Of a stretch of 64,000 bases of DNA, positions 32,231-64,000 are shown piece after piece. The notes beneath the pieces are model-generated. The model saw only the letters and a list, made by a program, of their open reading frames with translations, had not been told where the DNA came from and did not search any database. The translations under genes were made by a program, and so were the position numbers. The stretch lies in assembly GCA_965262715.1 (NCBI GenBank), contig OZ253553.1:2720001-2784000 (forward strand), written 5' to 3'. The DNA comes from Bdellovibrionales bacterium (GTDB lineage Bacteria; Bdellovibrionota; Bdellovibrionia; Bdellovibrionales; JAUICD01). Every line of letters starts with the position of its first letter. The first letter of the stretch is position 1.

Positions 32231-33343
32231 TTATTGGCACTTGCTTTGAATTTGCAGGACTTCTTTTTCTGAAAGCCCTGTTGCTTTACTTATGGCTTGT
32301 ATATCCATATCAGTTGTTTTTAGAAGATTTACAGCAACTTTCTGCAATCCTTTCTGCAATCCTTCCTGTAAACCTTTCTGTAATCCTTTCTGTAAACCTT
32401 CCTGCAATCCTTTCTGCAATCCTTTCTGCAATCCTTTCTGCAATCCTTTCTGCAATCCTTTCTGCAATCCTTCCTGTTGAGCTTCTTGCCTTATGCGATC
32501 TCTCATCATTTGTAATGCTGGCATTGTTCTTTTCTCCTCTGATACATTCTTTTCTTCTATCTCTTGTAAAATATTCCAAGTAAAGCTTGGATCACAAAGT
32601 CTCACACAATCAACAGCCCTTTCCATTAAAAAGATACGGTCTTCTTTATTAGCAAGCTTATTGGATAACTTAAACAAATCTCCAATGATCTGCTCATCTA
32701 AGTTCCATACACTTTTTAGTATAAACAAAATCGTCCCAGATAGCAACTCCTTTGAGCTTAATTCCGCTATTCCTAAATCATTTAAGTTTAATAATCTATA
32801 CTTATAATTTAAAACATTCTCACCAAAAGCCTTTTTAAGCTCTAAAGACTTAAAATTCAAATAATCATGGAAACTCAAAGGCAAATTCCATCCACTTTTA
32901 CCAGAGTAAACCAACACAGGGATCACTATGGATGGAGCTTTACGTTTTCCACTCTTAACATCTTTACTGTCTTTCTCGTAAATACTTGTCTGATACTTAA
33001 GAAACTGTAAAAAAATATCTGAGTCATTATAGGATTTATGCTCAAAAAGGAAAATAATTTCTACAATCTCATCTGAATTTTTCATCTTCACTGAAAAAAT
33101 CACATCAGCTCTCTGCTCCCTAAACACTTTATCTACAAAGACAGTCACTTTTGACTGTAGAGTTTTCCAATCAAAAAGATCAAATTCTTCAGGAGTTAAA
33201 ACCAAACGAAACAGGTCTAAGACATACCGCTCTTTGCTATAAACTTCATAAAACAAATGATTGAAAATGTGAAAAACTTCACGTTTCAACTCTTGTTTGT
33301 TTTTTGGAAATTTTGTCTTTTTATACTTAGAGTTTGCCATCAC
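32231..33343 (-). CDS. Rpn/YhgA-like nuclease, intact; internal RpnS-like start at 32524
   Basis: RADVIFSV, LFEHKSY, IPVLVYSG..W motifs; 11 GLQ(K/E) repeats; AGAGG RBS before GTG 33343. Confidence 0.9.
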   Translation of the reverse strand: MMANSKYKKTKFPKNKQELKREVFHIFNHLFYEVYSKERYVLDLFRLVLTPEEFDLFDWKTLQSKVTVFVDKVFREQRADVIFSVKMKNSDEIVEIIFLFEHKSYNDSDIFLQFLKYQTSIYEKDSKDVKSGKRKAPSIVIPVLVYSGKSGWNLPLSFHDYLNFKSLELKKAFGENVLNYKYRLLNLNDLGIAELSSKELLSGTILFILKSVWNLDEQIIGDLFKLSNKLANKEDRIFLMERAVDCVRLCDPSFTWNILQEIEEKNVSEEKRTMPALQMMRDRIRQEAQQEGLQKGLQKGLQKGLQKGLQKGLQEGLQKGLQKGLQEGLQKGLQKVAVNLLKTTDMDIQAISKATGLSEKEVLQIQSKCQ

Positions 33344-33613
33344 AAAACCTCTTAACTGACTATGAACCTTATTAAATGTAAAATCCTTAATCAAATGAAA
33401 ACTTCTACTTGCATCATAACTTAATTTCAAAAATATAAAAAAATACTCATCAAAGCCTCTCTAGATAAATCCTTCTACAACAAGGCCTCTGAAAAGTACA
33501 GTTCTTCGAGTCCATATTTCATTAGAAATGAAATGGTAAGATATTAGTTTTTTAAGACTTTGTTTTGCTTTCTCTAAAAAAACAGTATTCTCTCTAAAAC
33601 TCTCATATAAAAT

Positions 33614-33900
33614 CTATTGTTTAGATTTTTCTTGGAGTTTGAATATTTTTTCTTTTGAGAAACCAGTGATTTCAAGTACTTTTTCTACACTCATATCAGC
33701 ATGTAGAAGCTTTAATAAAATTTTTTCGATTTCTTGCCTTCCTTTTTTGAAGACCTCTTCATGAATTTTGAGGGCTTCTTCACGGACAAAGTTTTCTCTA
33801 CTTAGCCCTATCCCTTTTCTTTCTTATCAATTGCTTCTAAATATTCTCTTAAAACCTCATCTTGAGATAGGTTCCAAAAATGTTTCACTGCTTTTGCCAT
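33614..33900 (-). pseudogene. Frameshifted stand-alone RpnS-like module
   Basis: AAAGGAAAAAGT-ATG MAKAVKHFWNLSQDEVLREY..; length is not a multiple of 3. Confidence 0.75.
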
Positions 33901-33911
33901 ACTTTTTCCTT

Positions 33912-34868
33912 TTATATTTCCCTAAGCTTTTCTAACTCTTCCTTACTCAGTTTTGTAGAATCAAGAATAACTTGAATATCAATCCCATTTTTTAACATAT
34001 TTAAGGCGACTTTCTCTATCCCTTTTTCTATTCCTTTCTGTTGTCCTTCTCTTCGGGCTAGATTTTCTGCGCTAATTCTATCTCTTTCTCTTTTATCAAA
34101 CGCATCTATATATTCTTGTAAAGCCTCATCTTGGGATAAGTTCCAAAGATGTTTCACTGCTTTTGCCATATCTTCTCCTTTATTTTCCAAACTCTTATAT
34201 TCAGTATCATTCATTTTATATGAATTCTTTAATAAATAACACCATGACTCTCTTATATCATACAATTGCTTCACATTTTTATCAAATTTCCCTAATTCTA
34301 TGATAACAAAACATAATCCATTTGACATTAATACATGAGGAGGAGTGATCCGACAAATGTTACAAATATGGTGGTAGTCTTTAACATTTTTAAATTCTTT
34401 TAAATTCTTCGTTATGAAAACTAATGAGTACACGGGAAGTAACTTATCATAATCACTACCTTTTTTTAATTGTTGAGAATAAAGCCTACATGCATATACC
34501 AATGCTCTATCTGTAAAATAAGGTTTTGATACTGTTTGCATCTCTACATTTACAATCTCTGTTTCCTGGGTACCTGATTGTGTGTTCCTTTTTAAATGCA
34601 TTCTCAAGTCGAGAACAAATCTTCTACCAGATTCTTCACCTTTTATAACAGAAGGAGTATCAGGATGAAGATCAGGATCTAAAACGTCTACTTTTATAAC
34701 TTCTGAATGTTTTGGAAGTGGCAAAAAATGTGTGAGTAGTGATTTTAAAGCTTCTTCATTGCCTTTAAAATAGGTTTTAAAAGCTGCGTCATTTGTTAAT
34801 TTTAAAAAATGAGACTTTTTTAAAAATTCCTCAATATCTAATAACTGATGTTGATTACTTGAACCCAT
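33912..34868 (-). CDS. Rpn family PD-(D/E)XK_2 nuclease, intact; internal RpnS-like start at 34169
   Basis: NDAAFK, LDL, NVEMQ, DRALVY, IELGKF motifs. Confidence 0.9.
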   Translation of the reverse strand: MGSSNQHQLLDIEEFLKKSHFLKLTNDAAFKTYFKGNEEALKSLLTHFLPLPKHSEVIKVDVLDPDLHPDTPSVIKGEESGRRFVLDLRMHLKRNTQSGTQETEIVNVEMQTVSKPYFTDRALVYACRLYSQQLKKGSDYDKLLPVYSLVFITKNLKEFKNVKDYHHICNICRITPPHVLMSNGLCFVIIELGKFDKNVKQLYDIRESWCYLLKNSYKMNDTEYKSLENKGEDMAKAVKHLWNLSQDEALQEYIDAFDKRERDRISAENLARREGQQKGIEKGIEKVALNMLKNGIDIQVILDSTKLSKEELEKLREI

Positions 34869-36840: not shown

Positions 36841-38469
36841 ATGACAAAAGAGCAACCATTAGCAGGTATAGAAAAAGAGCTATGGCAAGCAGCAGATAAG
36901 TTGAGAGCTAACATGGATGCTTCTCAATATAAGGATATTGTTTTGGGGCTTATCTTTCTTAAGTATATTTCTGATAAATTTGATGAGTTTAGGGAAAAAC
37001 TTAAATCTGATCTTACAAATCCTCAACATGAGCACCATTTGCCTGATGCAAGTCAAGATGACATAGAGTTTGAATTAGAAGAGAGAGACTATTATAAGGC
37101 CAACACTATTTTTTGGGTACCTGCCCCTGCTAGATGGCATGGAAATAAAAATACAGAAGTAAAGGGTATTCAAGACAAGGCCAAGCAGTCAGATATTGGT
37201 AAAATCATTGATGATGCTATGGTAGCTATTGAAAGAGAAAATCCTAAATTAAAAAATGTACTTCCTAAAATTTTTACTCAGAGAGGAGTTAATATAAGGC
37301 TTGGAGAACTTATTGATTTGATCTCAAAGATTGGATTTAATAGCTCAGATCATCATGCGAAAGACATCTTAGGTCATGTTTACGAGTATTTTTTAGGACA
37401 ATTTGCTTCTGCTGAAGGCAAAAGAGGAGGACAGTTTTACACACCTAGGAGTGTGGTCAATTTAATTGTTGAATGTTTAGAACCTTATAACGGAAGAGTT
37501 TATGATCCAGCAGTTGGTTCTGGAGGTTTCTTTGTCTCTAGTAAACGGTTTATTGAATCTCATACAGATAAAAAGCATATCAACAAAGCTAAAAGGGACA
37601 TATCACTTTTTGGACAGGAGTCTAATCCTACCACTTGGAGACTTGCAGCTATGAATATGGCTATTCGTGGAATTGAGGTAGATTTAGGCAAACAAAATGC
37701 TGATACTTTTACAAATAATCAACATCTTGATTTAAAAGCTGACTTTGTGATGGCCAATCCTCCTTTCAATATGAGTGATTGGGGAGGGGATCAGCTAACT
37801 GATGATAGAAGGTGGAAATATGGTATGCCTCCCAAAGCGAATGCCAATTTTGCTTGGATTCAGCACATTATCTATCATCTCTCTCCTAGAGGCTATGCAG
37901 GAGTTGTCTTAGCTAATGGTTCAATGTCTTCTAATACGAGCAACGAGGGAGTTATTAGAAAAAATCTCCTTGAGGCTGATATTGTGGATTGTATGATTGC
38001 TTTGCCGGGACAATTATTTTTCAATACGCAAATTCCTGCTTGTATATGGATCATGGCCAAAGACAAGTCGGGGAAAAAGGATGATAGGCGCAGTAGAAAA
38101 AATGAAGTTCTTTTTATTGATGCTAGGAATATGGGGGAGATGATCAGTCGTGTTCAAAGGGCTTTTTCAGATAAAGATATTTTGCAGTTAGCTAGCATTT
38201 ATCATACTTGGCGTAATAAGGATAAGGGATATAGTGATCAGGCGGGGCTTTGTAAATCGGTCACATTAGAGGAGATCAAGTCTCATGATTATGTATTAAC
38301 TCCTGGAAGGTATGTTGGTATAGCGGAGGTCAAAGATGATGGTATTCCTTTTCATAAAAAGATGGAGAAATTGACTGGAGAGTTAAGAGATAGTTTTATT
38401 GAATCTAAAAAGTTAGAAAAGCAAATTAAGAAAAATCTTACAGGTATTGGGTTTAAGATAGATTTATGA
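36841..38469 (+). CDS. hsdM: Type I R-M methyltransferase subunit
   Basis: LWQAADKLR, GGQFYTP, YDPAVGSGGF and ANPPFN motifs. Confidence 0.95.
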   Translation: MTKEQPLAGIEKELWQAADKLRANMDASQYKDIVLGLIFLKYISDKFDEFREKLKSDLTNPQHEHHLPDASQDDIEFELEERDYYKANTIFWVPAPARWHGNKNTEVKGIQDKAKQSDIGKIIDDAMVAIERENPKLKNVLPKIFTQRGVNIRLGELIDLISKIGFNSSDHHAKDILGHVYEYFLGQFASAEGKRGGQFYTPRSVVNLIVECLEPYNGRVYDPAVGSGGFFVSSKRFIESHTDKKHINKAKRDISLFGQESNPTTWRLAAMNMAIRGIEVDLGKQNADTFTNNQHLDLKADFVMANPPFNMSDWGGDQLTDDRRWKYGMPPKANANFAWIQHIIYHLSPRGYAGVVLANGSMSSNTSNEGVIRKNLLEADIVDCMIALPGQLFFNTQIPACIWIMAKDKSGKKDDRRSRKNEVLFIDARNMGEMISRVQRAFSDKDILQLASIYHTWRNKDKGYSDQAGLCKSVTLEEIKSHDYVLTPGRYVGIAEVKDDGIPFHKKMEKLTGELRDSFIESKKLEKQIKKNLTGIGFKIDL

Positions 38470-38858
38470 ACATAACTTCTTTAAAACAATCAGTTCAAGA
38501 TTTAGAAAGAGCGTTAGAAATCTGTTATAAGAATACAGAAAACGGTGTACTTAAGGACGCTTGTATTTACAGATTTAAAAACACTTATGAGATCACTGTT
38601 AGAATGATAAAAAGGTATTTAAAGGAAACTTCAAGCAATCCTTTTGAAATTGAAAAACTAACTTTCAATCAAATGATCAGCAAAGCTTTTGAGGCTTCTA
38701 TTATTAAATTAGAGTTTGAAGATTGGAAAAAATTTAGGGATTGTCGCATAAAAGTTAGTGAAAGTTATCAAGAGGAAGTAGTAGATGAAATTTTAAAAGA
38801 GGTTCCATTTTTTTTAAAAGAAGTTAAGTACCTCATCAGTCGTCTTGACAAAAACTGA
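38466..38858 (+). CDS. HI0074-type HEPN protein lacking the R-X4-H motif
   Basis: DACIYRFKNTYE..W..FRDCRIKVSESY; ATGA overlap with hsdM. Confidence 0.8.
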   Translation: MNITSLKQSVQDLERALEICYKNTENGVLKDACIYRFKNTYEITVRMIKRYLKETSSNPFEIEKLTFNQMISKAFEASIIKLEFEDWKKFRDCRIKVSESYQEEVVDEILKEVPFFLKEVKYLISRLDKN

Positions 38859-38876
38859 AACAGGAGGAACAAAGCA

Positions 38877-39284
38877 ATGAATAAATACGAAAAGTTTCAA
38901 AAAGCTTTAAAGCATTTAGAGCGAAGAAATACAGAATATAAGAACATAGATGAACAGTCTCAATGGATAAGGGAATCTATTATAGAATCTGTTATCCAAA
39001 GGTTTGAAGTTTGTTGTGATTGTTTGTAGAAGGCTTTGAAGGCTTATTTAGAAGAGAATTTAAAAGATTCTAAGATTCCAAATAGCCCTAAACCAATTTT
39101 TGAAATAGTTTGTGAAAAAAACATTTTAAGTGTGCCTAAAGAACAATGGCATAAATATATAGATATGAGAGATGCCACTAGCCATGACTACAATCATCAA
39201 AAAGCTCAAAGAGCAATAGATATAATAGATGGTTTTACTGATGATACCACTGGTCTTTATCAAACAATGACAGGTCAAACATAG
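38877..39284 (+). pseudogene. HI0074-type HEPN protein with an in-frame TAG at 39027
   Basis: ESVIQRFEVC..*KALK..RDATSHDY; AGGAGG RBS. Confidence 0.8.
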
Positions 39285-39292
39285 GAGTTAAA

Positions 39293-39712
39293 ATGCTTAA
39301 TTTATCATCATTAGAGAGTGCTATCAATGAGCTTGAATATTTTTTAAATTCTTATGACTCTAAGGAACATCAAGGAGATCCAAAAATAGTACGTATAGCA
39401 GCTATTAAAGCTTTTGAGTTTACTTATGAGCTAACTTTTAAAATGATGGAGCGTTATTTAAGGGAGAGCGCAGCAAGTGTTGATGATTTTAAAAGCGCAA
39501 CTTTTAAATTAATTATTCGAAAGGCTTATGCAGCCTCTATCACAAGTAAGGCAATTGAAGAATGGGAGGAATTTAGAGAAAATAGGAACAAAACAAGCCA
39601 TACATATAAAGAGAAGATAGCAATAGAAGTTTTTGAAAAGATTCCTGCTTTTTTAGAGGAAGCTCGGTATATATTAAAACAGTTAAAAGAGAGGATAAAA
39701 CATCTTGAGTAA
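39293..39712 (+). CDS. HI0074-type HEPN RNase toxin with intact motif
   Basis: AAIKAFEFTYEL..W..RENRNKTSHTY (R-X4-H). Confidence 0.85.
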   Translation: MLNLSSLESAINELEYFLNSYDSKEHQGDPKIVRIAAIKAFEFTYELTFKMMERYLRESAASVDDFKSATFKLIIRKAYAASITSKAIEEWEEFRENRNKTSHTYKEKIAIEVFEKIPAFLEEARYILKQLKERIKHLE

Positions 39713-41462
39713 GCCTGATATTCGCCCTGATCATCTTAAGATTGTGCAAGACATTTTGAATAAGAGCCTTTCAAGTGATATAAAGGTGTGGGTTTATGGT
39801 AGTCGTGCCAAGTGGACCACTCTTGATTCTTCTGATTTGGATTTAGCTTTAGAGAGCAAAGACAAAATTGATTATGAAGTGATGAATCGCTTAAACTGTG
39901 ATTTTGAAGAAAGCAATTTGCCTTATGAAGTGGACGTTGTAGATATAAATACAGTGCAGCTTTTTTTTAGAGATATTATCAATAAAGACAAAGTTTTATT
40001 AGATCGTTATACTTCGATGAAAGGAAAGAAGACTATTCCAAAAGGTTGGCAAGAAGTAAGATTAGGTGATGTTATTTTTGTAAATCCATTGGAGGTAATT
40101 CCAAAAGATAATACTAGAAAAAAAGTCTTAATGGATGATTTAACTCCTTTTAGAAAGAAAATTTCTAATTATACTAATGACATATATAAAGGAGGATCAA
40201 GATTCAGAAATGGAGATACTTTATTAGCTAGAATAACACCTTGCTTAGAAAATGGAAAAACAGCTTTTGTTGATGTTCTAGAAAAAGATGAAGTAGGATT
40301 CGGTTCGACAGAATTTATTGTTATGAGAAGTAAGCCACATTTAACTGATAAGCATTTTTTATTTTACCTTGCTATCTCTCCTTACTTCAGAAATCTAGCC
40401 ATTAAATCTATGACAGGTTCTTCAGGAAGGCAGAGGGTTCAGACTGACGAAATTATGAATATTAAAGTTTTTTTACCACCACTTCCAGAGCAGAAAGCAA
40501 TTGCAGAAATATTATCAAGTTTAGATGACAAGATAGAGCAAAATCAAAATATGAATAAGATATTGGAGGAGATGGCACAAGCTATTTTCAAGTCATGGTT
40601 TGTTGATTTTGATCCTATTTATGCAAAAAGGATGGCTTTAGAAGCAGGATTAGCAGGAGGTCAAGCTGAACGAGCAGCAATGGCAGTGATTGCTGGAGTG
40701 TGTAGTCCTAAGCAATTTGCAGAGAATTTCAGGCAGATGGATCGTAGCTTAGGTGAAAAGTTCTTTAAGATAAATGAAAGTGCGAAGTATGAATTAATTT
40801 ATAAGGCGTCATTATTTCCAAGTGAGTTTGTAGATAGCAAACTTGGTCTCATCCCAAAGAGCTGGAATATTTGCAAAATTGGAGAAAAAATTGATTTTAA
40901 TCCGACAACTCTTTTAAAAAAAGGAACAGCTGCAAATTATGTTGATATGAAGTCATTACCAACTTCTGGACATAGAATCAAACAAGTTGTAAGGAGAATA
41001 TTTAAATCAGGAACTAAATTTCAAAATGGTGATACTCTAATAGCTCGTATTACGCCATATTTAGAAAATGGAAAAACAGCTTATGTGGATCGTTTGGAAA
41101 ATGAAGAAGTAGCATGGGGATCAACAGAGTTTATTGTAATGAGGTCAAAAAAAGATGTATTTGGTATCTGGACATATTTGCTTAGTAGAAATGATGATTT
41201 TAGACGTTTCGCTATATCTAATATGTCTGGAACAAGTGGGAGACAAAGAGTTTCAGCAGATCTCTTATCTCAATATGAAATACCATTGGCAAGCATTAAG
41301 ATTTTAAGTAATTTCAATAGGGTAGTCACATCATTTTTTGAAAAAATGAAAAAGAATAGTGTTGAAAGTTCCTATCTTGAAGGTTGTCGAGACATTTTAT
41401 TGCCTAAGCTTTTATCAGGAGAGATTGATATCTCCAAAATCAAAACAAAGGAAAAATTATGA
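39705..41462 (+). CDS. hsdS: MNT nucleotidyltransferase fused to a type I specificity subunit
   Basis: VYGSRA..SDLDL..YEVDVVD (~100 aa), then IPKGW, two TRDs, LPPLPEQKAIA and RDILLPKLLSGEI. Confidence 0.9.
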   Translation: MSKPDIRPDHLKIVQDILNKSLSSDIKVWVYGSRAKWTTLDSSDLDLALESKDKIDYEVMNRLNCDFEESNLPYEVDVVDINTVQLFFRDIINKDKVLLDRYTSMKGKKTIPKGWQEVRLGDVIFVNPLEVIPKDNTRKKVLMDDLTPFRKKISNYTNDIYKGGSRFRNGDTLLARITPCLENGKTAFVDVLEKDEVGFGSTEFIVMRSKPHLTDKHFLFYLAISPYFRNLAIKSMTGSSGRQRVQTDEIMNIKVFLPPLPEQKAIAEILSSLDDKIEQNQNMNKILEEMAQAIFKSWFVDFDPIYAKRMALEAGLAGGQAERAAMAVIAGVCSPKQFAENFRQMDRSLGEKFFKINESAKYELIYKASLFPSEFVDSKLGLIPKSWNICKIGEKIDFNPTTLLKKGTAANYVDMKSLPTSGHRIKQVVRRIFKSGTKFQNGDTLIARITPYLENGKTAYVDRLENEEVAWGSTEFIVMRSKKDVFGIWTYLLSRNDDFRRFAISNMSGTSGRQRVSADLLSQYEIPLASIKILSNFNRVVTSFFEKMKKNSVESSYLEGCRDILLPKLLSGEIDISKIKTKEKL

Positions 41463-42502
41463 ATACTCTTGAATATAGATGCCCAATATGGAGTAACTCA
41501 AATGAACAACAAACACTTGATGCTAAGAGTTCATATAATAAAGATAAAAGGTGGTATGAGGTGGATTCACCAAGAGCTGGAGGTAAATATCGCATTTTAT
41601 GTGAAGCTGAGAAGAAGCTTAATCCCTCACTTGGAGATTCAGGTAATACAGATGATATTACACATCAAATAAGTTATGGTTTTAGAGCAAAGCTTACTAC
41701 ATGGCTTATTGAACAAAGAAAACAAGGAGATAAAAGCCCTTTAATTACTGATGAAGTATTAGAACAGATCCATAGTAAAAAAGACATTCCTATACAAGAA
41801 AGAATTAATAATGTTTTAAAATATATCTACGAAAAAAATCAGGAACATAAAAATAAATATTCACACTTTGATGAAATTCCTATAAATGTTGATGAGCTAA
41901 AAGCCTATGCCGAATGTGCCAATAATGATGATTTGCAGATCATACTCGATTATTTGAAACAAAACCAACTTATCAACATAGATGATAATCAACGTATAGA
42001 ACAGTTCTTAGAGATTACTTTGAATGTTAAAGGACTAGAAAGATTAGAATCTCTTGAAACCAATAAAGACAGCAGACAAGCTTTTGTTGCCATGTGGTTT
42101 GATGAAAGCATGAATAATATTTATGATAAAGCCATACAGCCGGCTATTGAAGAATTGGGTTATCAGGCGATGAGGATTGATAAAAAAGAGCATAACAACA
42201 AAATTGATGATGAGATCATAGCAGAAATTAAAAGATCAAAGTTTCTAATTGCTGATTTTTCTTATGGTAAGGATGGCATAAGAGGAGGTGTTTATTACGA
42301 AGCTGGTTTTGCTCACGGCTTAGGTATTCCGGTTATTTTCACTTGCCGTGAAGGAGATGAAAATAAATTACATTTTAACACTCGTCAATTCAAGCATCTT
42401 CTTTGGAAAGATGCAGAAGATTTAAAAAAGCAGCTAAAAGATCATATAGGAGCAACCCTTGGTGATGGCCCATTAAAATCAATAAATTACAAGCCTAAGT
42501 AA
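41459..42502 (+). CDS. Putative defence protein with C-terminal nucleoside 2-deoxyribosyltransferase/TIR-like domain
   Basis: AFVAMWF..RID..IDDEI..IADF..GGVYYEAGFAHGLGIPVIFTC; ATGA overlap with hsdS. Confidence 0.7.
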   Translation: MNTLEYRCPIWSNSNEQQTLDAKSSYNKDKRWYEVDSPRAGGKYRILCEAEKKLNPSLGDSGNTDDITHQISYGFRAKLTTWLIEQRKQGDKSPLITDEVLEQIHSKKDIPIQERINNVLKYIYEKNQEHKNKYSHFDEIPINVDELKAYAECANNDDLQIILDYLKQNQLINIDDNQRIEQFLEITLNVKGLERLESLETNKDSRQAFVAMWFDESMNNIYDKAIQPAIEELGYQAMRIDKKEHNNKIDDEIIAEIKRSKFLIADFSYGKDGIRGGVYYEAGFAHGLGIPVIFTCREGDENKLHFNTRQFKHLLWKDAEDLKKQLKDHIGATLGDGPLKSINYKPK

Positions 42503-42603: not shown

Positions 42604-45600
42604 ATGAATATGTTTAAGAAACTTTTTAATTCATCATCGTCATCACCTCAAAAGCTTTGTACTCAAACCACTTTAACAGAAAAAAACAATATGCGATCTC
42701 AACTTATAAAAGCTGTTTCTGAAATACTTCCAACACATTACATTTCTGAAGAAACACTTCAATCATGGCTGGAAAAGTTAGGAGCTTCAAAAGCATTAAA
42801 GCTATTGAAGCAAAAGCTACCAGAAGATAAAAAAAAGAATTCCGGTGATCTGGGGGAAATCTTAGCCACAGAATATGTAAATCATGAGCTGGAATATGAA
42901 GTGCCTATTAAAAAACTAAGATGGAAAGACTCACGAGAACAATCACTCCGTGGAGATGATCTTATTGGCTTTATTGATAAAGAAAATGTTTTAAAAATTT
43001 TAAAAGGTGAAGTTAAAAGCAGTGTTTATATAACACTATCCATTATAAAAAAGCTAGAGAAACAATTAAATTCTAATGAGGGAAGACCAAATCGACACTC
43101 AATCCTCTTTATAACTGAAAGGCTTCGTGAACTAGGAAACACACCTCTTGCAAATAAAATAGAGAGAATTATTGCTGAAGAGAGTATAAAGCGAGAAAAT
43201 ATTGAACATCTAGGATTTACTTTTTCGGGAAATTGTCCAAAAGAAATTCATTTAAAAAGTCTTAATAAATATAATGGTACAATTAAACGAATTTTTGTCG
43301 GTTTACATATTAGAGATCATCAAGATTTTATCAAGACAGTTTACCAAGAAGCTGTAACAGAAAAACCAATAAGACAGATAGTAAATAGAGAAATGAAAGA
43401 TGAAGAAAAACATCTGTCTTTAGAAGAACTGACTAAACCTGAATTTCGTGGACGTTTACTTGCAAGGGGCTTGGCCCGTGGAATGATATGGAAAGATGGT
43501 CGATCGCCAGAAGATGGGCCTAAATTTTCTAAAGAATTAACTGAAGATTTATTAGATTACGGATATGCTCTGTTTTCCATTGGACTAAAAAAACTAGAAT
43601 CCGAAACTGACAAGACTCTCTTAAAGAAAACTTTTCTTATAGCTGGTGAATCTATTGAGTCTGTTGTAAGAAAAGGTAACCCATTAGACCCTTATCGAGG
43701 TTATCATACTGTTGCATCTGCTATAGCATTTCATTTAGCAGGTTATTCTGCTCGTTCATACTGTATGATACCAGAAGATTTTAAAACATCATTAAATATC
43801 TCACATATTGAACTTGGTCTGATATATTTGTTACGTAGAGATTTATTCCAACTAAGAACATGGATTGAGGAAGTTTTTAATAAAGATACTTCATTTAAAG
43901 GAGACGATGAAGTTTCAAATGATGATCTCATACAACAATTTGCAATAGAAAATAACTTTTTGTCTGCTATGGCTTATTTAGAATTTGCTTTACAAACGGG
44001 TGATAACTCATTGATAGAAAATGCCTTTTCAAAATTAGATAATGGTATTTCTGTATCAAAAGATTTTTCTCACGTTCCAATGTGGTGGCAGAATTTTATA
44101 ACTAAATTCTTAGTAAAAGACTTGTGGAAACACACACTGCATGAAGTTATACCAAAAGGGCAAGAAACTAAATGGAATCAACTAAGACAGCTTTTTATTT
44201 CACTACTATATATGCGTGAAAAATCAGAGGTTGACCTTTGGCCCTCTCAACTTGAAGCAGGCAAACGATGTGTTGATGAAAAAGATGACCTTGTAGCGAC
44301 TTTACCTACGAGTGCGGGGAAAACTCGTATTGCTGAAATGTGTATTTTAAGAACTCTTTCACTTGAAAAAAGAGTCATTTATATTACACCGTTGAGAGCT
44401 TTATCAGCACAGACAGAACAAACTCTATCTGATACCTTTACTCCATTAGGCTTTACAGTTTCATCTCTTTATGGTGCTATTGGATCAACAAAAACTGATA
44501 TAGATACACTTAAAAGTCAAAATATCGTTGTATCCACTCCAGAAAAGTTAAGCTTTGCTCTTAAAAACGATCCTCAGATTTTAAATGATGTTGGGTTAGT
44601 CATCTTTGATGAGGCTCATACCCTCGGCTTGAATGAAAGAGAAATCAATTATGAAATTCTTATTCAGAAAATATTAAAGCGAAAAGATGCTGACAATCGT
44701 CGATTGGCTTGCCTTTCTGCGATGTTTCCTCAAGGACAAGAATTAAATAATTTTTTAAGTTGGATTCGACAAGACCAACCAGGTGAAGCTATTCAATCTG
44801 ATTGGAAACCTACACGTCAAAGATTTGGAGTTATTGAATGGAAAGACACTTATGCTCGCTTAGATTTTACAGTGGATTCGGAAAAACCATTTATTCCCAA
44901 ATTTATAGAAGGAAAACCTCCAAAATCAAGAAAAGGAAACTTTTTTCCTCAAAATAAAAATAAACTAGTTTTAGTTTCTGCATGGAAACAAGTCAGTGAA
45001 GGTCACAGAGTATTAATATATTGCCCACAACGTAGATCAGTAGAAGCCCTCGCAAAACTAGCTTTAGATTTGTGTAATAAAGACCATTTACAATCATTGA
45101 TTGAAAGTACTGAAACATCATCAAAGAGTTTAATTGATGATACCATTCAATCTGGAAAAGAATGGTTAGGTGAAGATCATATTGCTATTACATGTCTTAA
45201 ATTAGGTATAGCTGTGCATCATGCCGGATTGCCAAGGCCTTTTTTACATTCAATAGAAAGACTTATCAGGAAAAATATTTGTAAGATTATTATATCTTCA
45301 CCAACTTTAGCTCAAGGATTAAATTTATCTGCAAGTTGTCTTATTGTACACTCAATATACCGTAAAGGAAAGCCCGTGCCAAAAAAAGAATTTTTAAATG
45401 TTATTGGTAGGGTAGGAAGGGCTTTTATAGATATTGATGGGATTATATTATTTCCAGTTTATGAATCTGACAAAAGAAAAAGAGATAAACAAATTCTAGA
45501 ATGGAGACAACTTACAAGCTCTCAAATAGAAAATATTCAAAGTGGACTTTTTCTTTTGGTTGAGAAACTCATTACTCTTATTTCAAAGTACAGAGGATAC

Positions 45601-46860
45601 AGTAAAGACAATCTGCTGGAATACCTTTTTTCAAATCAAGAAATATGGAAAATTCCCACTCGTAATATATCAGAAGACGACGTAGAAAATTGGCCAAAAT
45701 ATCTATCCTATCTTGACTCAGCTATTCTTTCTTTAGCAGATGACTTAGATGCCAATGTTGACAAGATATCTCAAATTTTAGATAACATTTTAAAAGGTTC
45801 ACTTTGGCAACGTCAAATGAATTTAATATCTGAAGGAGATCAAAGACTTCATCAAGAGATACTCAGACAAAGAGCTTCCTGGATTTGGGCCCATACAAAC
45901 TCTAAAGAACGTAGGGGATATTTTGCTGCTGGTGTTGGCTTAGAGTGTGGAAAGTATATTGATAATAATGAAGAAATGATCAGAAATCTTATAAATGCTG
46001 AAGATTATATACAATCAAGAGAAAAAGAAAAGTTTCTAGAAGCCATAATAAATTTTGCTGACTTGGCTTTCCAACAACCTTCTTTCAAACCTTATAAATA
46101 TTGTGATTGTTGGCAAGATGTATTGAAAGAATGGCTCTTAGGTAAACCTGTATCAGAGATTATCCAAATAGGTGGAAAAGAGACAGTTCCTTTTATTCAA
46201 GATGCATTGATCTATAAGTTAGTCTGGGCAATAGAGGCTGTATTCAATCAATCCAAACATACAAAAAAATTCAAAGATATACGACCTAAAAAAATCACAG
46301 ATATAAAAACTGAAAATTCAATTTTTAATGATACACTAGATAGTTTATTAAATGATATGGACTTTACAGATATTGAAATCAAAGACATTTCTTTAGCTAT
46401 AGAATGTGGCTCTCTCAATTTGTCTGAATGCACTCTTATCAAGGCAGGTTTAAATTCAAGAGTTGTAGCAAGAGAAGCTGTCAGAAAAGAACAAGGAAGA
46501 TTTCAAGATCATGATAGTATGAGGGCATGGTTAAAAGAACTACCTCGCGATGAAAACTGGCCAACTCCAGAAACAGCAAAGGAATGGAAAAAATTCATCG
46601 AGAGAACTTCTGAAAAAGAAAAGAAACTTGAAATCAAAACATGGGAAGCTTCATGCAAATGGTCAGATCAGCTTGATAGAATTCCTCAAGTTGACTGCAA
46701 ATTAAGAGTCAAAGTATCAAGAAAAAACCTCTCTATTTACTCTCCTGATTTTAAGCTCCTAGGAAATATCTCTAACAATAGAGATGATATTTCGACATCT
46801 GCAAATATTTGGGCTACTGTTATTTCTGAAGACAAGCTTGAGATTACACATATTGGATAA
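42604..46860 (+). CDS. Hachiman-like HamA (DUF1837 nuclease) - HamB (Ski2-like DEAH helicase) fusion
   Basis: SGDLGEILA..KLRWKD..RGDD..KGEVKS, then LPTSAGKT, DEAH, HHAGL, TLAQGLN, GRVGR. Confidence 0.8.
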   Translation: MNMFKKLFNSSSSSPQKLCTQTTLTEKNNMRSQLIKAVSEILPTHYISEETLQSWLEKLGASKALKLLKQKLPEDKKKNSGDLGEILATEYVNHELEYEVPIKKLRWKDSREQSLRGDDLIGFIDKENVLKILKGEVKSSVYITLSIIKKLEKQLNSNEGRPNRHSILFITERLRELGNTPLANKIERIIAEESIKRENIEHLGFTFSGNCPKEIHLKSLNKYNGTIKRIFVGLHIRDHQDFIKTVYQEAVTEKPIRQIVNREMKDEEKHLSLEELTKPEFRGRLLARGLARGMIWKDGRSPEDGPKFSKELTEDLLDYGYALFSIGLKKLESETDKTLLKKTFLIAGESIESVVRKGNPLDPYRGYHTVASAIAFHLAGYSARSYCMIPEDFKTSLNISHIELGLIYLLRRDLFQLRTWIEEVFNKDTSFKGDDEVSNDDLIQQFAIENNFLSAMAYLEFALQTGDNSLIENAFSKLDNGISVSKDFSHVPMWWQNFITKFLVKDLWKHTLHEVIPKGQETKWNQLRQLFISLLYMREKSEVDLWPSQLEAGKRCVDEKDDLVATLPTSAGKTRIAEMCILRTLSLEKRVIYITPLRALSAQTEQTLSDTFTPLGFTVSSLYGAIGSTKTDIDTLKSQNIVVSTPEKLSFALKNDPQILNDVGLVIFDEAHTLGLNEREINYEILIQKILKRKDADNRRLACLSAMFPQGQELNNFLSWIRQDQPGEAIQSDWKPTRQRFGVIEWKDTYARLDFTVDSEKPFIPKFIEGKPPKSRKGNFFPQNKNKLVLVSAWKQVSEGHRVLIYCPQRRSVEALAKLALDLCNKDHLQSLIESTETSSKSLIDDTIQSGKEWLGEDHIAITCLKLGIAVHHAGLPRPFLHSIERLIRKNICKIIISSPTLAQGLNLSASCLIVHSIYRKGKPVPKKEFLNVIGRVGRAFIDIDGIILFPVYESDKRKRDKQILEWRQLTSSQIENIQSGLFLLVEKLITLISKYRGYSKDNLLEYLFSNQEIWKIPTRNISEDDVENWPKYLSYLDSAILSLADDLDANVDKISQILDNILKGSLWQRQMNLISEGDQRLHQEILRQRASWIWAHTNSKERRGYFAAGVGLECGKYIDNNEEMIRNLINAEDYIQSREKEKFLEAIINFADLAFQQPSFKPYKYCDCWQDVLKEWLLGKPVSEIIQIGGKETVPFIQDALIYKLVWAIEAVFNQSKHTKKFKDIRPKKITDIKTENSIFNDTLDSLLNDMDFTDIEIKDISLAIECGSLNLSECTLIKAGLNSRVVAREAVRKEQGRFQDHDSMRAWLKELPRDENWPTPETAKEWKKFIERTSEKEKKLEIKTWEASCKWSDQLDRIPQVDCKLRVKVSRKNLSIYSPDFKLLGNISNNRDDISTSANIWATVISEDKLEITHIG

Positions 46861-51071: not shown

Positions 51072-51114
51072 ATCACTTATACCCTTCTAAAATGAAAAAT
51101 CTAATAGGAATATA

Positions 51115-51215
51115 AGCAAAATACATGCCATGTTAAAACAGCGATAAAAGTGGGTTTGAGACTTGAAATGTAAAATATTGTCCGACAAATCGGACAGAAA
51201 ATCCGGATTTTAGAC
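51115..51215 (-). promoter_or_regulatory. Rpn leader: sigma54-type promoter plus upstream palindromes
   Basis: ATGGCATGTATTTTGCT; TGTCCGA-N4-TCGGACA at 51179-51196; AAAATCCGGATTTT. Confidence 0.65.
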
Positions 51216-51531: not shown

Positions 51532-54500
51532 ATGACAGAAAGAGACTTAGAACAACAATGTATTGACTGGTTCAAAGAAATTGGATGGAACTACCATCGT
51601 GGATATGACATCGCTCCTGATACAGACAATCCCAAACGTACAGATTATAGGCAAGTTGCATTAGAGGAATATTTATCTGAGTCCTTAGAAAGAATCAATC
51701 CTGATATTCCAAAAGAAAACATTAATGAGATCATTATAAAATTGACTCGACTTGATGCGTCCTCTGTTGAGTTCAATAATCGACAATTTCATAGATATAT
51801 TAATAATGGTATCCCTATTGAAATAAGAACAGATGAAGGTATGAAAAATGATATCGTTAGAATTATCGACTTTGAAAATCTACATAATAACCATTTTCTT
51901 GTAGTCAATCAGTTTACTGTTCAAGGAAACAATGGAAATCGAAGACCTGATATAGTTGTTTTTATCAATGGACTGCCTATCGTTGTTATTGAATTAAAAG
52001 ACCCTTTTGATGAAAATGAAGACATCTGGGAAGCCTATAAACAAATGGAAACTTATAAAGAAGAACTAACTGATCTCTTCGCCTACAATTTAGCCTGTGT
52101 GATCTCGGATGGATCAAATGCTAGAATAGGTTCCATTACAGCAGGAAAAGAAAGATACGGATTTTGGAGAACATTAAAAACAGAAAAAGATTGTCCAAAT
52201 TTTGAGTTTGAAATTGAAACTGTGATTAAAGGTTTTTTTGATAAAGAACTTCTTCTTGATTATCTTCGTTACTTTGTTGTTTTTGAAGAAAATGCAGGAA
52301 ACATTACAAAAAAAATTGCAAACTACCATCAATTTCATGCTGTACGTCAAGCCATTAATAGTACAATTGCTGCTACTTGTGATGTCAAAGATGGTAAATG
52401 TGGGGTGGTTTGGCATACTCAAGGTAGTGGAAAATCTATTTCTATGTGCTGCTATGCTGCTAAGCTCATGTCTCATGAAAGAATGAATAATCCCACTTTA
52501 GTTGTTGTCACAGATCGAAATGATCTTGATGGTCAACTCTATGAAACTTTTTGTAATGCCAGTGAACTTTTAAAAGAACATCCTCAACAGGCTGAGAATC
52601 GAAACAAGTTAAGACAACTTCTTAATCGACCATCAGGAGGGATTATTTTTACTACCATTCAAAAGTTTTCTCTTTTAAATGGTGAACATAAATTTCCAAA
52701 ACTGACTGATCGAAGTAATGTTGTTGTTATTTCTGATGAAGCTCACAGAAGCCAATATGGATTAAAAGCGAAGATTCGAGAAATCGATGGTAGAATAGTC
52801 TATGGTTATGCAAAACATTTGAGAGATGCCTTGCCAAATGCTGGGTTTATTGGTTTTACAGGAACACCCATATCAAAACAAGATAGAGATACTGTAGCTG
52901 TCTTTGGTGATTATGTTTCTATCTATGATATTAAACAAGCAGTTAAAGATTGTGCCACAGTTCCAATTTACTATGAGTCCAGGCTAGCTCAACTTCAGCT
53001 AGTTCAAGAAGCAAATGAGATTGATGCTGAAGTGGATGAAATTATGGAACAGTCCAATAATGGCTCAGACACCTATATCAATAAACAAAAAAGAAAATGG
53101 GCTGCGCTGGAAAAGTTAGTGACTACTGAGTCACGAATGAAACAAATTGCTGAAAATATTATTGAACACTGGGAAAAAAGACTAAATATTATGGATGGGA
53201 AAGCTATGATTGTTTGCATCTCAAGACAAGCTTGTGTGCAGATGTATAATGAGATTATTCATCTTAAACCTGAATGGGTTGGAACAACTGATAAAGTTGG
53301 TCGACCTCACCTGCAAAATGGTGTGATCAGAGTTGTGATGACAGGAAGTGCTAGCGATGAAAAGTTTCTTCGCACTCATGTCTATGACAAAAAGGGACGT
53401 AAAAGCTTGGAAAACCGCTTTAAAGATCCAAGTGACTCTTTGAAGATTGTTATTGTAAGAGATATGTGGCTGACAGGTTTTGATGCTCCTATTTTACATA
53501 CTATGTACATTGATAAACCCATGAGAGGAGCTAACCTCATGCAAGCCATTGCTCGTGTCAATAGAGTTTTTGAAGAGAAGCCAGGTGGTCTTATAGTTGA
53601 TTATCTTGGTATTGCTAATGATCTTAAAGATGCTCTTAAAACCTATATCCAAGCTGGAGGGAAATCAAAACCAACAATTGATATCTATGAGGTATTAGGA
53701 GTTCTTCAAGGTAAAATAGATTATGTAAGGGATATGCTCAAAAACATTAACTACTTGGAATATAAAGATCCTAAGAAAATTTTCTCTATCATTACTGATG
53801 CCTGTGATTATCTTTTGGAAACAGAAGATAGAAAGAAAACATTTTGTGATACTGTCTTAGCTATGACAAAAGCCAATGCTTTATGCGGCGTTGTTCCTGA
53901 AGCTGTAGAGCTTCAGGATGAAATAGCTTTTTTTCAAGCTGTTAGAGTAGCTCTTACTAAAAAAGATCGTCTTCAAGAAAGTATTTCTGATGAGCAAGTA
54001 CAAAATGCTCTTAGACAAGTGGTTTCCAATGCTATTGTCTCAGATAAGATTATTGATATTTTTGAAGCAGCAGGACTTCATAAACCAGATATTTCAATTT
54101 TATCTGAAGAATTTCTAGAAGAAATTAAAAATATAAAACAAAAAAATTTAGCAGTAGAAATGCTTTCTCGTCTCCTCAAAGAAGAATTTAAATCAAAGAT
54201 AGCAACGAATATTATCCAACAAAAAAAATACTCTCAATTGCTCACTGATGCATTGAACAAGTATAGAAATCGTACTATTGAGACATCTCAAGTCATTGAG
54301 GAGCTAATACAAATGGCTAAAGATTTTAGAACAGAAAAAGATAGAGGACAAAGTCTTGGGTTGAACAATGATGAATTAGCCTTTTACGATGCTCTTTCTG
54401 ATAACGATTCTGCAAAAGAAGTCTTAGGAGATGAAATTCTTAAAAAAATGGCGAATGAACTTACAGAGCAATTGAGAAAAAGTGTAACAATCGATTGGGC

Positions 54501-54645
54501 TAAAAGAGAAAGTGTGCGTGCTAATATTCGGCTCAAGATTAGAAGATTATTAAAAAAATATAAGTATCCACCTGACAAAGAAGATGCTGCTGTAAAGTTA
54601 GTGCTTGAGCAAGCAGAAACTTTATCACAAAGCTGGATTCATTAA
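51532..54645 (+). CDS. hsdR: Type I R-M restriction subunit
   Basis: RPDIVVFING..IELK, HTQGSGKS, DEAHRSQY, FTGTP, QAIARVNR. Confidence 0.95.
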   Translation: MTERDLEQQCIDWFKEIGWNYHRGYDIAPDTDNPKRTDYRQVALEEYLSESLERINPDIPKENINEIIIKLTRLDASSVEFNNRQFHRYINNGIPIEIRTDEGMKNDIVRIIDFENLHNNHFLVVNQFTVQGNNGNRRPDIVVFINGLPIVVIELKDPFDENEDIWEAYKQMETYKEELTDLFAYNLACVISDGSNARIGSITAGKERYGFWRTLKTEKDCPNFEFEIETVIKGFFDKELLLDYLRYFVVFEENAGNITKKIANYHQFHAVRQAINSTIAATCDVKDGKCGVVWHTQGSGKSISMCCYAAKLMSHERMNNPTLVVVTDRNDLDGQLYETFCNASELLKEHPQQAENRNKLRQLLNRPSGGIIFTTIQKFSLLNGEHKFPKLTDRSNVVVISDEAHRSQYGLKAKIREIDGRIVYGYAKHLRDALPNAGFIGFTGTPISKQDRDTVAVFGDYVSIYDIKQAVKDCATVPIYYESRLAQLQLVQEANEIDAEVDEIMEQSNNGSDTYINKQKRKWAALEKLVTTESRMKQIAENIIEHWEKRLNIMDGKAMIVCISRQACVQMYNEIIHLKPEWVGTTDKVGRPHLQNGVIRVVMTGSASDEKFLRTHVYDKKGRKSLENRFKDPSDSLKIVIVRDMWLTGFDAPILHTMYIDKPMRGANLMQAIARVNRVFEEKPGGLIVDYLGIANDLKDALKTYIQAGGKSKPTIDIYEVLGVLQGKIDYVRDMLKNINYLEYKDPKKIFSIITDACDYLLETEDRKKTFCDTVLAMTKANALCGVVPEAVELQDEIAFFQAVRVALTKKDRLQESISDEQVQNALRQVVSNAIVSDKIIDIFEAAGLHKPDISILSEEFLEEIKNIKQKNLAVEMLSRLLKEEFKSKIATNIIQQKKYSQLLTDALNKYRNRTIETSQVIEELIQMAKDFRTEKDRGQSLGLNNDELAFYDALSDNDSAKEVLGDEILKKMANELTEQLRKSVTIDWAKRESVRANIRLKIRRLLKKYKYPPDKEDAAVKLVLEQAETLSQSWIH

Positions 54646-54703
54646 TGAAAATAGGGTTGTATAAATGTATGTATTGTACAAGTCATATAATGATACGAGT
54701 ACG

Positions 54704-56566: not shown

Positions 56567-56569
56567 TCA

Positions 56570-57147: not shown

Positions 57148-57156
57148 TTCTTCCTT

Positions 57157-61510: not shown

Positions 61511-61765
61511 CATACATTTATTTTATTTGTTTTTGTAAGACATACTTATTTAAAGTTTTTATTTAATGTTGAAAGACTAACTGTTAAGAGGATTAAAAAG
61601 AGGCCTTTATTGTCAAAAGAACTTGCCAGAAAACTCACTAGCACGAAGCTAAATATTTAAAATTTATTTTTTATAGCCCTGCACAAAAATTTGAAATACA
61701 CTATAAACTTTAGTATTTTCTATATAGTTCGTATTTTAAAAAAAAGAAGATAGGGTAAGAAATTT

Positions 61766-61900
61766 ATGACAAAAGAACCATCATTAGCAAATATGGAGAA
61801 ACTGACTGGAGAGTTAAGAGATAGCTTTATTGAATCTAAAAAGTTAGAAAAGCAAATTAAAGAAAACTTAGCAGGTATTGGTTTTAAGATAAGCTTATGA
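61766..61900 (+). CDS. 44-aa mini-HsdM (N-terminal ~9 aa joined in frame to the C-terminal 35 aa of HsdM)
   Basis: MTKEPSLANMEKLTGELRDSFIESKKLEKQIKENLAGIGFKISL*; upstream 61681-61745 duplicates the hsdM upstream region ~36758-36822. Confidence 0.75.
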   Translation: MTKEPSLANMEKLTGELRDSFIESKKLEKQIKENLAGIGFKISL

Positions 61901-64000
61901 ATATAACTTTTTTAGAGCAATCCATTCAAAATTTAGAAAAAGCCTTAGACAGATACCATAAACATAAAGAGGATAAAAGCACGTTAAAGGATATTTTTAA
62001 AGATTCTTGTATTTACAGATTTAAAAACACTTATGAAATTACTTTTAAAATGATGAAAAGGTATTTAAAGGAAGCTTCCAGCAATCCTTTTGAAATTGAA
62101 AAATTAACATTCAATCAAATAATCGAAGAAGCTTTTACAGCTTCTATTATTAAGTTGGAGGTTAAAGATTGGAAAAAGTTTAGAGAGCACTGCATAAGGA
62201 TGAGTGAATTTTATAAAGAAGACGAGGGTGATGAAGTTTTAAAAGAAATTCCACTTTTTTTAGAAGATGTTAAATACTTCATTAGCCGTCTTAATGAAAG
62301 CTTATCACCGGAGAAAGAAATAACGAATAAGCATGATAAGCCTGATATTCACCCCGGTCATCTTAAAATTGTTCAAGACATTTTGAATAAGACCCTTTCA
62401 AGTGATGTAAAGGTATGGGTTTATGGCAATCGTGCTAAGTGGGCCACTCTTGATTCTTCTGATCTGGATTTAGCTTTAGAGGGTACAGGTAAAATTGATA
62501 ATAACACTATAAGTCAACTGGAACATGATTTTGAAGAGAGTGACCTACCTTATGAAGTGGATATTGTGGATATAGCAGTAGTACAGCCTTTTTTCAAGGA
62601 TGTTATCAATAAAGATAAAGTTTTATTAGATCGTTATGCTTCAATGAAAAAAAAGAAGACTATTCCAAAAGGTTGGCGAAAAGTGAGATTAGGGGATTTA
62701 ATTGATATTAAACATGGTTATGCATTTGATGGCAAACATATAACAAATGACGTTAACGAAAATATTTTAGTAACTCCAGACAACTTTCATATTGGAGGAG
62801 GATTTAAATCTTCAAAATTAAAATATTGCAATGGTGATATTCCAGCAGATTACATCTTAAGTGAAGGTGATAAAATTGTAACAATGACAGATTTAAGTAA
62901 AGAAGGAGATACACTTGGTTATTCTGCAAAAATTCCTAAAAGCAAAAATGGTGAAATATATTTACATAATCAAAGAATAGGATTACTTCAATACCAATCA
63001 AAAGATGTTTATGAAGACTTTATTTATTGGATAATGAGGAGTAATAAGTATCAACAATTTATAGTTAGTGCTGCTACTGGTACTTCTGTAAGACATACAT
63101 CCCCAACAGCTATTAAAAAATACAAATTTTATTTGCCACCTCTTCCTGAGCAGAAAGCAATTACAGAAATATTATCAAGTTTAGATCACAAGATAGAGCA
63201 AAATCAAAATATAAATAAGGCATTGGATGAAATGACACAAGCTATTTTCAAGTCATGGTTTGTTGATTTTGACCCTGTTCATGCAAAAAAGATGGTTTTA
63301 GAGGCAGGGTTATCAAAAAAGAAGGCAGAGCGAGCAGCAATGGCAGTGATTACTGGAATGTGCAGTCCCAAGCTGTTTATAGAAAATATTAAGCAGATGG
63401 ATCACAGTTTAAGTGAAAAGTTATCTAAGATGAGTCAAAACAAGAGAGATAAGTTATCTTACACAGCATCATTATTTCCAAATGAGTTTGTAGACAGCAA
63501 CCTTGGCCTCATCCCTAAAGATTGGTCTTGTAAATCTATAGGCAACATTGCAACTGTTATAGAAGGAGGAACTCCTGCAACCAAAAATAAAAAATATTAT
63601 TGTAACAAAGGGGAGGGAATTCCATGGTTGACACCAAAGGATCTCTCTAGATATTCATGGAAATATATCTCCAGTGGAGCAATAGACATAACTGAGTCTG
63701 GGTTAATAAATTCGGGCGCAAAAATAGTACTTAAAGGGACTGTACTGATTTCCTCGAGAGATCCAATTGGTTATATAGCAATTGCTGAAAATAAATTGTC
63801 TATAAATCAAAATTTTAAGTGTTTAGTTCCTCATATTGATACTCAATTTCTTTATTACTGGGCAAAAAGTAATATTGATAACATAGAAGCTGCAGCTACA
63901 ACAGGTCTTACGTTCAAAAAGATAACCAGAAGGAATATAGAAAATCTTAAACTTGTAGTGCCAAATAGAGATATCATGAACCAATTTAATCGATTCACAG
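61897..64000 (+). CDS. hsdS: HEPN-MNT-HsdS triple fusion, partial (runs off the window)
   Basis: Hand translation is open from ATG 61897 to the end: DSCIYRFKNTYE (HEPN), VYGNRA..SDLDL (MNT), IPKGW..LPPLPEQKAI..second TRD. Confidence 0.9.
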   Translation, partial: MNITFLEQSIQNLEKALDRYHKHKEDKSTLKDIFKDSCIYRFKNTYEITFKMMKRYLKEASSNPFEIEKLTFNQIIEEAFTASIIKLEVKDWKKFREHCIRMSEFYKEDEGDEVLKEIPLFLEDVKYFISRLNESLSPEKEITNKHDKPDIHPGHLKIVQDILNKTLSSDVKVWVYGNRAKWATLDSSDLDLALEGTGKIDNNTISQLEHDFEESDLPYEVDIVDIAVVQPFFKDVINKDKVLLDRYASMKKKKTIPKGWRKVRLGDLIDIKHGYAFDGKHITNDVNENILVTPDNFHIGGGFKSSKLKYCNGDIPADYILSEGDKIVTMTDLSKEGDTLGYSAKIPKSKNGEIYLHNQRIGLLQYQSKDVYEDFIYWIMRSNKYQQFIVSAATGTSVRHTSPTAIKKYKFYLPPLPEQKAITEILSSLDHKIEQNQNINKALDEMTQAIFKSWFVDFDPVHAKKMVLEAGLSKKKAERAAMAVITGMCSPKLFIENIKQMDHSLSEKLSKMSQNKRDKLSYTASLFPNEFVDSNLGLIPKDWSCKSIGNIATVIEGGTPATKNKKYYCNKGEGIPWLTPKDLSRYSWKYISSGAIDITESGLINSGAKIVLKGTVLISSRDPIGYIAIAENKLSINQNFKCLVPHIDTQFLYYWAKSNIDNIEAAATTGLTFKKITRRNIENLKLVVPNRDIMNQFNRFT

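Follow-up and report, generated by a model that had tools for sequence, protein, structure and literature searches.

A predicted HEPN/MNT toxin-antitoxin cassette in a type I restriction-modification operon, with the predicted antitoxin fused to the specificity subunit HsdS

We have identified, in a 64,000-nucleotide stretch of a Bdellovibrionales genome (contig OZ253553.1, positions 2,720,001 to 2,784,000; hereafter the window), a type I restriction-modification (R-M) operon whose specificity subunit, HsdS, begins with an MNT domain, a predicted antitoxin, directly downstream of genes for HEPN proteins, the predicted toxins. Coordinates are those of the window, where the main locus lies on the + strand; the source genome, G000, keeps its own numbering. 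We conclude that this is a real, common and apparently uncharacterised variant that joins two known kinds of system. Our preferred reading, to which we give a probability of about 0.5, is that a type VII toxin-antitoxin cassette resides in the slot between hsdM and hsdS and that the supply of antitoxin is likely to be tied to HsdS, as an addiction and back-up arrangement.

The operon opens with the methyltransferase gene hsdM (36841..38469, +; 542 aa), with motif I (DPAVGSGGF) and NPPF intact. It overlaps, at an ATGA, the first of three HI0074-type HEPN genes, each a single-domain open reading frame (ORF) of 130-139 aa that passes the PF08780 cut-off in a profile search. HEPN1 (38466..38858, +) lacks the RX4HXY motif and is predicted to be catalytically dead; HEPN2 (38877..39284, +), of another HI0074-type subfamily, has the motif (RDATSHDY) and is interrupted by a TAG at 39027-39029; HEPN3 (39293..39712, +) is an intact predicted RNase toxin with RNKTSHTY at residues 98-105 (R98-X4-H103-X-Y105, codons 39584-39607). 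HEPN3 scores 93.4 bits against 31.8 for PF08780 and 76.2 against 55.8 for TIGR01987 (HI0074). Its stop overlaps the TTG start of a 585-aa ORF (39705-41462, +), which runs from an HI0073-type MNT domain (39705..40007, +) through a short flexible linker (40008..40040, +) in frame into HsdS (40041..41462, +) and in turn overlaps the next gene. The MNT domain (residues 20-101; PF01909 at 26.9 bits against a cut-off of 21, PF18765 at 45.8 against 26.9) retains the catalytic residues G32-S33-X10-D44-X-D46 (GSX10DXD, 39798-39842) and the third aspartate, D77, and together with HEPN3 it carries the motifs of a class I HEPN/MNT pair. The HsdS part is complete (target-recognition domain 1 (TRD1), conserved helices, TRD2, conserved helix), with its Methylase_S match beyond residue 112 of the ORF and a PADLOC Specificity_I match at E 4e-125.

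The remaining type I component, hsdR (51532..54645, +; 1037 aa, intact), lies about 10 kb downstream of the fusion. With the hsdR of the matching operon in G174, a genome from another family of the phylum, it shares 71% identity, and with the other hsdR genes of its own genome 22-28%; it is the probable cognate of this HsdM and HsdS. The locus therefore has all the parts of a type I system: an HsdM with S-adenosylmethionine-binding and NPPF motifs, a two-TRD HsdS with helices, and hsdR. In an AlphaFold model of the fusion (mean pLDDT 87.5, pTM 0.75) both parts are folded and confidence is low at linker residues 104-108; Foldseek matched the model to HsdS structures (1yf2, 7vs4) and to HI0073. 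The best solved-structure matches of HEPN3 and the MNT domain are HI0074 (1jog) and HI0073, at E 1e-19 and 1e-29. The NCBIfam HepT/MntA models (NF047751/NF047752; equivalog cut-off 60 bits) were not reached, with 40.1 bits for MntA and no HepT match for HEPN3. A complex prediction of two HEPN3 chains with the MNT domain scored 0.00 twice, with no folded controls, and weighs neither for nor against. Assembly error at the TAG or in the MNT frame was considered and rejected with Logan contigs: one from the probable source run spans 38561-40605 with zero differences, and in a run from a second study the TAG and 39785-40029 read identically. ORFs, Pfam and TIGR matches, structure prediction and contigs thus agree on the gene order that a sequence-only reading of this DNA had proposed, from hsdM through a motif-less, a stop-interrupted and an intact HEPN to the MNT-HsdS ORF.

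Class I HEPN/MNT pairs, including those of PF08780 and PF01909, comprise an RNase toxin and an antitoxin that AMPylates the tyrosine of the HEPN motif (PMC7641770). HEPN3 would be the RNase toxin of the present locus, and the fused MNT domain likely silences it by AMPylating Tyr105. We infer that the fusion protein joins the methylase/restriction complex and that the level of antitoxin follows the synthesis and survival of HsdS. If the operon were lost or silenced, or if the fusion were degraded or no longer made, as under host shut-off or failed assembly, HEPN left unmodified would begin to cut RNA. In this way the cassette would both make the R-M locus addictive and provide a second-line, growth-arresting defence, with coupling through dosage and stability and no dedicated sensor. 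Modification is reported to be incomplete for MNTs without the last helix, and a Legionella pair is under-modified (PMC11586414); in fused MNT-HEPN forms the stability of the MNT determines neutralisation (PMC13000451). HsdS tolerates a whole HsdM fused to its N-terminus and remains active (PMC6158711).

The fusion recurs both within this genome and far beyond it. G000 holds four MNT-HsdS fusions (2759705, 2781897, 2922498 reverse and 1392954), each preceded by a PF08780 HEPN, and one additional free HEPN-MNT pair. Homologue searches with two MNT domains returned 627 and 148 long proteins, and all 120 listed of each carry PF18765 and PF01420; length filters exclude stand-alone MNTs from these searches, so we use them for abundance only. 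When proteins of any length were admitted, HsdS fusions made up 120 of the 150 top-ranking representatives (at 50% identity). GSX10DXD is intact in 118 of 120 fused homologues. A metagenome scan with the MNT domain alone as query kept 81 MNT ORFs in 80 loci, all 81 with GSX10DXD: 65 are fused, 8 run off the contig and 8 stand alone (one split inside the hsdM-hsdS slot, seven free). Where the contig leaves room, the metagenome fusions have an RX4HXY HEPN directly upstream (57 of 60), hsdM upstream (40 of 44) and hsdR downstream (21 of 23). Loci from GTDB come from Chloroflexota, Acidobacteriota, Spirochaetota, Pseudomonadota, Thermodesulfobacteriota and Poribacteria, and a cultured example, on plasmid pZMOB01 of Zymomonas mobilis ATCC 10988 (WP_014466388/389/390/415 for the operon), is annotated plainly as subunit S. 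A GTDB whole-protein-alignment scan found 20 fused ORFs in 80 loci; its HsdS pattern diluted the signal and its ranking favours fusions, so we do not use it for the fused-to-split ratio.

That ratio comes from a sample blind to the fusion, anchored on PF08780 in three phyla (401, 301 and 120 genomes), in which 190 loci were examined in stretches of 2-5 kb (the best 110 of 209 matches, 46 of 46 and 34 of 70). No hsd gene lies in the stretch in 158 of them; 23 have MNT-HsdS fusions, five have adjacent but separate MNT and hsdS genes, two show hsdM-HEPN-MNT with no hsdS seen, and two lie beside hsdR only. When the genome at the centre of the sampling, itself selected as fusion-bearing, is dropped, 22 of 189 loci are fused, and fused outnumber split forms 22 to 5, about 4 to 1, in events that are not independent. 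The possibility that the fusion is a one-off can thus be set aside, and the search for MNT plus HsdS beside HEPN that had been proposed from the sequence found many such proteins in the databases.

The same sample bears on the possibility that the pair is an independent toxin-antitoxin passenger in a known type I insertion slot, its fusion a side effect of recombination at the MNT-TRD1 junction that is tolerated but carries no regulatory meaning. The 158 loci without an R-M gene in the stretch examined are consistent with such independence, and type I operons commonly carry embedded genes (bioRxiv 10.1101/2024.01.29.577857). Additionally, many linkers keep vestigial hsdS starts, and on the MNT tree (153 domains, 97 columns, unrooted) the fused and split states interconvert, with 17 changes of which at least five are forced by strongly supported branches, across several MNT clades. 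However, a stop-free in-frame junction is expected by chance in at most one-third of cases and was observed in 22 of 27 (binomial p 4e-7 if independent, which kin are not), and the window's own clade has lost the internal start. On these grounds we consider an indifferent passenger doubtful.

Recombination provides a further view of how the parts move. Among the 33 loci that have a full hsdM, distances between HEPNs track those between MNTs with rho 0.68, while the two correlate with HsdM at 0.34 and 0.36. HsdMs 82-92% identical can carry HEPNs only 24-35% identical (in one case 92% for HsdM and 24% for HEPN), and of 21 pairs whose MNTs are 80-99% identical, 20 have TRD1s that share 12-30% identity. 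Of 14 close pairs chosen by hand, four are alike throughout, whereas in 10 the DNA identity extends through the MNT and linker, breaks at TRD1 and returns at the central conserved region; in six Acetobacter pairs it breaks in every case within the last fifth, the 3' end, of the MNT gene. Crossovers placed in this way, at the MNT 3' end or in the linker, are what a passenger would show. They also suggest that TRD1 exchange uses the MNT gene as its upstream crossover arm, so that fusion and fission would recur and junctions would pass back and forth between the fused and the split state. Purifying selection acts on both domains: across 12 close pairs picked by hand the ratio of non-synonymous to synonymous substitution rates (dN/dS) is 0.08-0.34 for MNT and, from the 11 unsaturated pairs, 0.04-0.21 for HEPN.

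The sequence-only reading had offered two roles for the tether, a guard against anti-restriction proteins or a means of making hsdS addictive. An addictive locus fits the data, although addiction to hsdS itself fits only in part, since the MNT domain is N-terminal and HsdS is truncated in 5 of 95 complete fused ORFs that still hold the HEPN-MNT pair. A guard like that of PrrC, in which the tethered MNT would keep HEPN in check only for as long as the R-M complex stays intact and free, and Ocr, ArdA or Stp-like proteins that bind or distort the complex would release the RNase, is the half that has weakened, and we think it rather unlikely. In its favour are the roughly fourfold excess of fused over split forms, the recurrence of the fusion in several MNT clades and in two HsdS/HsdM classes, and one MNT clade nearly confined to this role, as the representatives and metagenomes above indicate. 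HEPN guards of R-M systems have been proposed generally (PMC3710099), PrrC and PARIS offer precedents (PMC12707154), and a chain named Cmr1-MntA in PDB 9z7q points, by name only, to an MntA on another defence complex. Against it, the linker ranges from 3 to 57 residues with no conserved sequence and low pLDDT; unrelated HEPN/MNT pairs have been exchanged on close R-M backbones; split forms occupy the same slot; the pair persists beside truncated HsdS; no sensor domain like the PrrC ABC ATPase is present; and covalent AMPylation is slow to reverse. We hold just as tentatively the wider idea of a convergent, widespread class of guarded type I systems, in which an HsdS-borne AMP-transferase would keep HEPN off, anti-restriction would trigger RNA destruction, stacked or dead HEPNs would tune the threshold and the MNT gene would serve as the recombination arm of a specificity switch.

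Whether HsdS is also made on its own bears on the guard and the passenger alike. At this locus the TTG start at 39705 has a Shine-Dalgarno-like site (-5.8 kcal/mol), while the ATG at 40017 in the linker, the sole in-frame start detected between 39960 and 40075, has none (0 kcal/mol), and its position is Met in one, Ile in five and Val or Leu in five of the 11 closest homologues. Thus HsdS is here most likely produced only as the fusion, and separate translation from this Met, raised earlier as an objection, finds no support. Elsewhere, a linker start with a Shine-Dalgarno site is kept in 18 of 62 distinct testable fusions, against 6% of 2354 control windows, which counts against the guard; 14 of 76 fusions were omitted for want of a Trp anchor. 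These fusions may yield both products or be recent. The positive control is crude, with a start detected in only 16 of 32 unfused hsdS genes, so misses elsewhere carry little weight.

The stacked HEPNs upstream also bear on the toxin. HEPN1 shows conservation, not decay (dN/dS 0.24-0.26 in three unsaturated pairs), RX4H is absent from all eight homologues found, and a counterpart is kept in G174; judged by its sequence it is predicted to be dead, and is possibly a damping heterodimer partner. The TAG in HEPN2 is a strain-level feature, with a sense codon in three runs of three other studies, and the MNT type cognate by sequence to the HEPN2 subfamily is absent from the locus. Among the 10 upstream HEPNs of the eight multi-HEPN fused loci, 8 are broken or have no complete RX4HXY motif, a state shown by the HEPN of 4 of 99 fused loci with a single HEPN. 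When RX4H alone is considered, 6 of the 10 are affected. Loss of the motif in displaced HEPNs fits their being toxic, though not absolutely.

Several observations weigh against the cassette reading. AMPylation is covalent, so release would require new or under-modified HEPN, and the fused and split counts, as noted, are not independent events. In Acetobacter, where four plasmids were examined out of 23 matches, all four (NZ_CP021512 is a split Acetobacter example) carry a split MNT in the same slot within complete operons, on hsdM genes with 88-91% DNA identity to that of Zymomonas; with 22 of 27 junctions fused in the PF08780 sample, the fusion is thus favoured but not required. Relatives with a contig collinear with this single-MNT locus have an uninterrupted HEPN2, and HEPNs with intact RX4HXY occur without a sequence-cognate MNT in G174 and G264. 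A rule that any HEPN lacking its cognate MNT has to be broken was considered and is weakened by these cases, which imply that such HEPNs are cross-neutralised or not very toxic. Finally, in G174 and G301 it is the HEPN beside an intact MNT that has lost its motif.

This last arrangement, an intact MNT with motif-less neighbours, would suit a domesticated module, in which HEPN, instead of being a toxin, would help to bind the substrate while the tethered MNT would nucleotidylate either the R-M complex or some other target, with HEPN1 a step toward that state. Purifying selection on HEPN1 and its retention in G174 point the same way, and domestication of HEPN-MNT has been described (PMC3710099). 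However, full RX4HXY is present in 95 of 99 single-HEPN fused loci, and the motif-less type was found only in this lineage (eight matches; 1 of 61 genomes). Domestication seems very improbable.

Both halves of the system have close known counterparts. The class I pair HepT/MntA, HI0074/HI0073 of Haemophilus influenzae (1jog, 1no5; PMC7641770), has the same RX4HXY HEPN beside a GSX10DXD MNT; what sets the present locus apart is that its MNT forms the N-terminus of HsdS, that HEPN and MNT are embedded in a type I operon and that further HEPN genes are stacked upstream. PrrC-EcoprrI (PMC3710099, PMC12707154) likewise places a HEPN RNase gene within a type I hsd operon as a plausible second line of defence, and the guard idea and HEPN-R-M links are known (PMC3710099, PMC2701414, PMC12707154). 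Unlike PrrC, the present HEPN has no ABC ATPase, its predicted control is an HsdS-fused MNT enzyme, and its family lies mostly outside R-M loci (158 of 190). In FhepTA (PMC13000451) an MNT antitoxin also sits within a larger polypeptide, with altered stability; there, however, it is fused to the toxin rather than to HsdS, whereas the HEPNs of the main locus are separate genes. Within the window, all three share one chain, HEPN-MNT-HsdS, in the second copy alone, where the order is reversed and the motifs are degenerate. Cmr1-MntA (PDB 9z7q, 9z7v, 9z7x) is, by chain name, an MntA fused to a subunit of a defence complex, of type III CRISPR rather than HsdS; no paper describing it was found in the literature searches.

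The literature on 'guilt-by-embedding' (bioRxiv 10.1101/2024.01.29.577857) describes co-oriented, exchangeable cargo between hsd genes, which our locus shares, with further cargo between hsdS and hsdR. Here, in contrast, a core subunit has taken up part of the cargo by fusion, and the accessible main text of that preprint contains neither MNT nor nucleotidyltransferase. We found no account of an MNT-HsdS fusion in the literature searched, which excludes most subscription papers; Figure 5 of PMC3710099, with its 'RM_TRD' label, or the supplements of the embedding preprint may list it. The fusion is not mentioned in the accessible parts of PMC12839542, PMC8266594 and PMC8432527, and the 4,325 characters of supplement text of PMC3710099 gave no match. 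Deletion of hsdSp in Zymomonas ZM4 (PMC8432527) was considered as an existing test of the system and set aside, as the accessible text mentions no nucleotidyltransferase and the plasmid is not among the matches.

About 1 in 9 of the sampled HI0074-family HEPN loci (22 of 189) proves to be of the R-M-embedded, HsdS-fused form, hidden in databases as 'restriction endonuclease subunit S'. The findings give a concrete setting for type VII pairs, whose triggers remain largely unknown, and, alongside PrrC, another possible way for a type I enzyme to gain a back-up or become addictive. Additionally, fused (Zymomonas) and split (Acetobacter) versions occur naturally on close hsdM backbones in harmless cultured bacteria, making the importance of the tether directly testable.

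A second, diverged copy of the locus (61661..64000, +) comprises a remnant of hsdM and a 746-aa HEPN-MNT-HsdS triple fusion that starts at 61897 and continues past the end of the window; its HEPN is motif-less, GN replaces GS in its MNT, and its TRDs are different. It adjoins a Mutator-family transposase (60079-61320), and its hsdM is cut to about nine N-terminal and 40 C-terminal codons. In the genome beyond the window, G000 2784328-2787702 holds an hsdR tail and a second remnant that joins the start of hsdM to the end of hsdS. Similar triple fusions are P0009 and P0010. Two different tandem MNT domains precede HsdS in P0005, P0013-P0015, P0018, P0029, P0068, L316, L317 and L230 (in G301), where the second MNT is stop-interrupted and hsdM is a 63-codon remnant. 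In a Spirochaetia metagenome-assembled genome (L046, 1607-16460) three hsdM/HEPN/MNT-HsdS cassettes, which represent two MNT clades, follow one another within 15 kb, and one hsdM runs in frame into its HEPN. None of 29 pattern matches in viral contigs proved to be a relative of this MNT, and the phage collection yielded no confirmed relative either.

Within the HsdS of the main locus, TRD1 (40041-40475) and TRD2 (40854-41294) are 47% identical, and TRD1 is closely related to that of the fusion at G000 2921080-2922498, whose MNT belongs to another clade. The cargo downstream begins with a 347-aa gene (41459-42502, +) that overlaps the hsdS stop and has a C-terminal nucleoside-deoxyribosyltransferase/TIR-like domain (PF05014, weak; PADLOC PDLC00733). 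A copy lies at G000 2786590-2787702, and the gene also trails MNT-HsdS fusions in L059, L230 (G301) and L233 (G174). It is followed, still ahead of hsdR, by Hachiman HamA and HamB in one 1418-aa ORF (42604-46860, +; PF08878 at 33-203, PADLOC HamB at E 0 over 269-1414). Many genes and fragments of the Rpn/YhgA-like family (PF04754, PF12784) surround the R-M locus at 32231-34868 and 50118-59800 (-), with repeated C-terminal units of the 'EGLQK' type.

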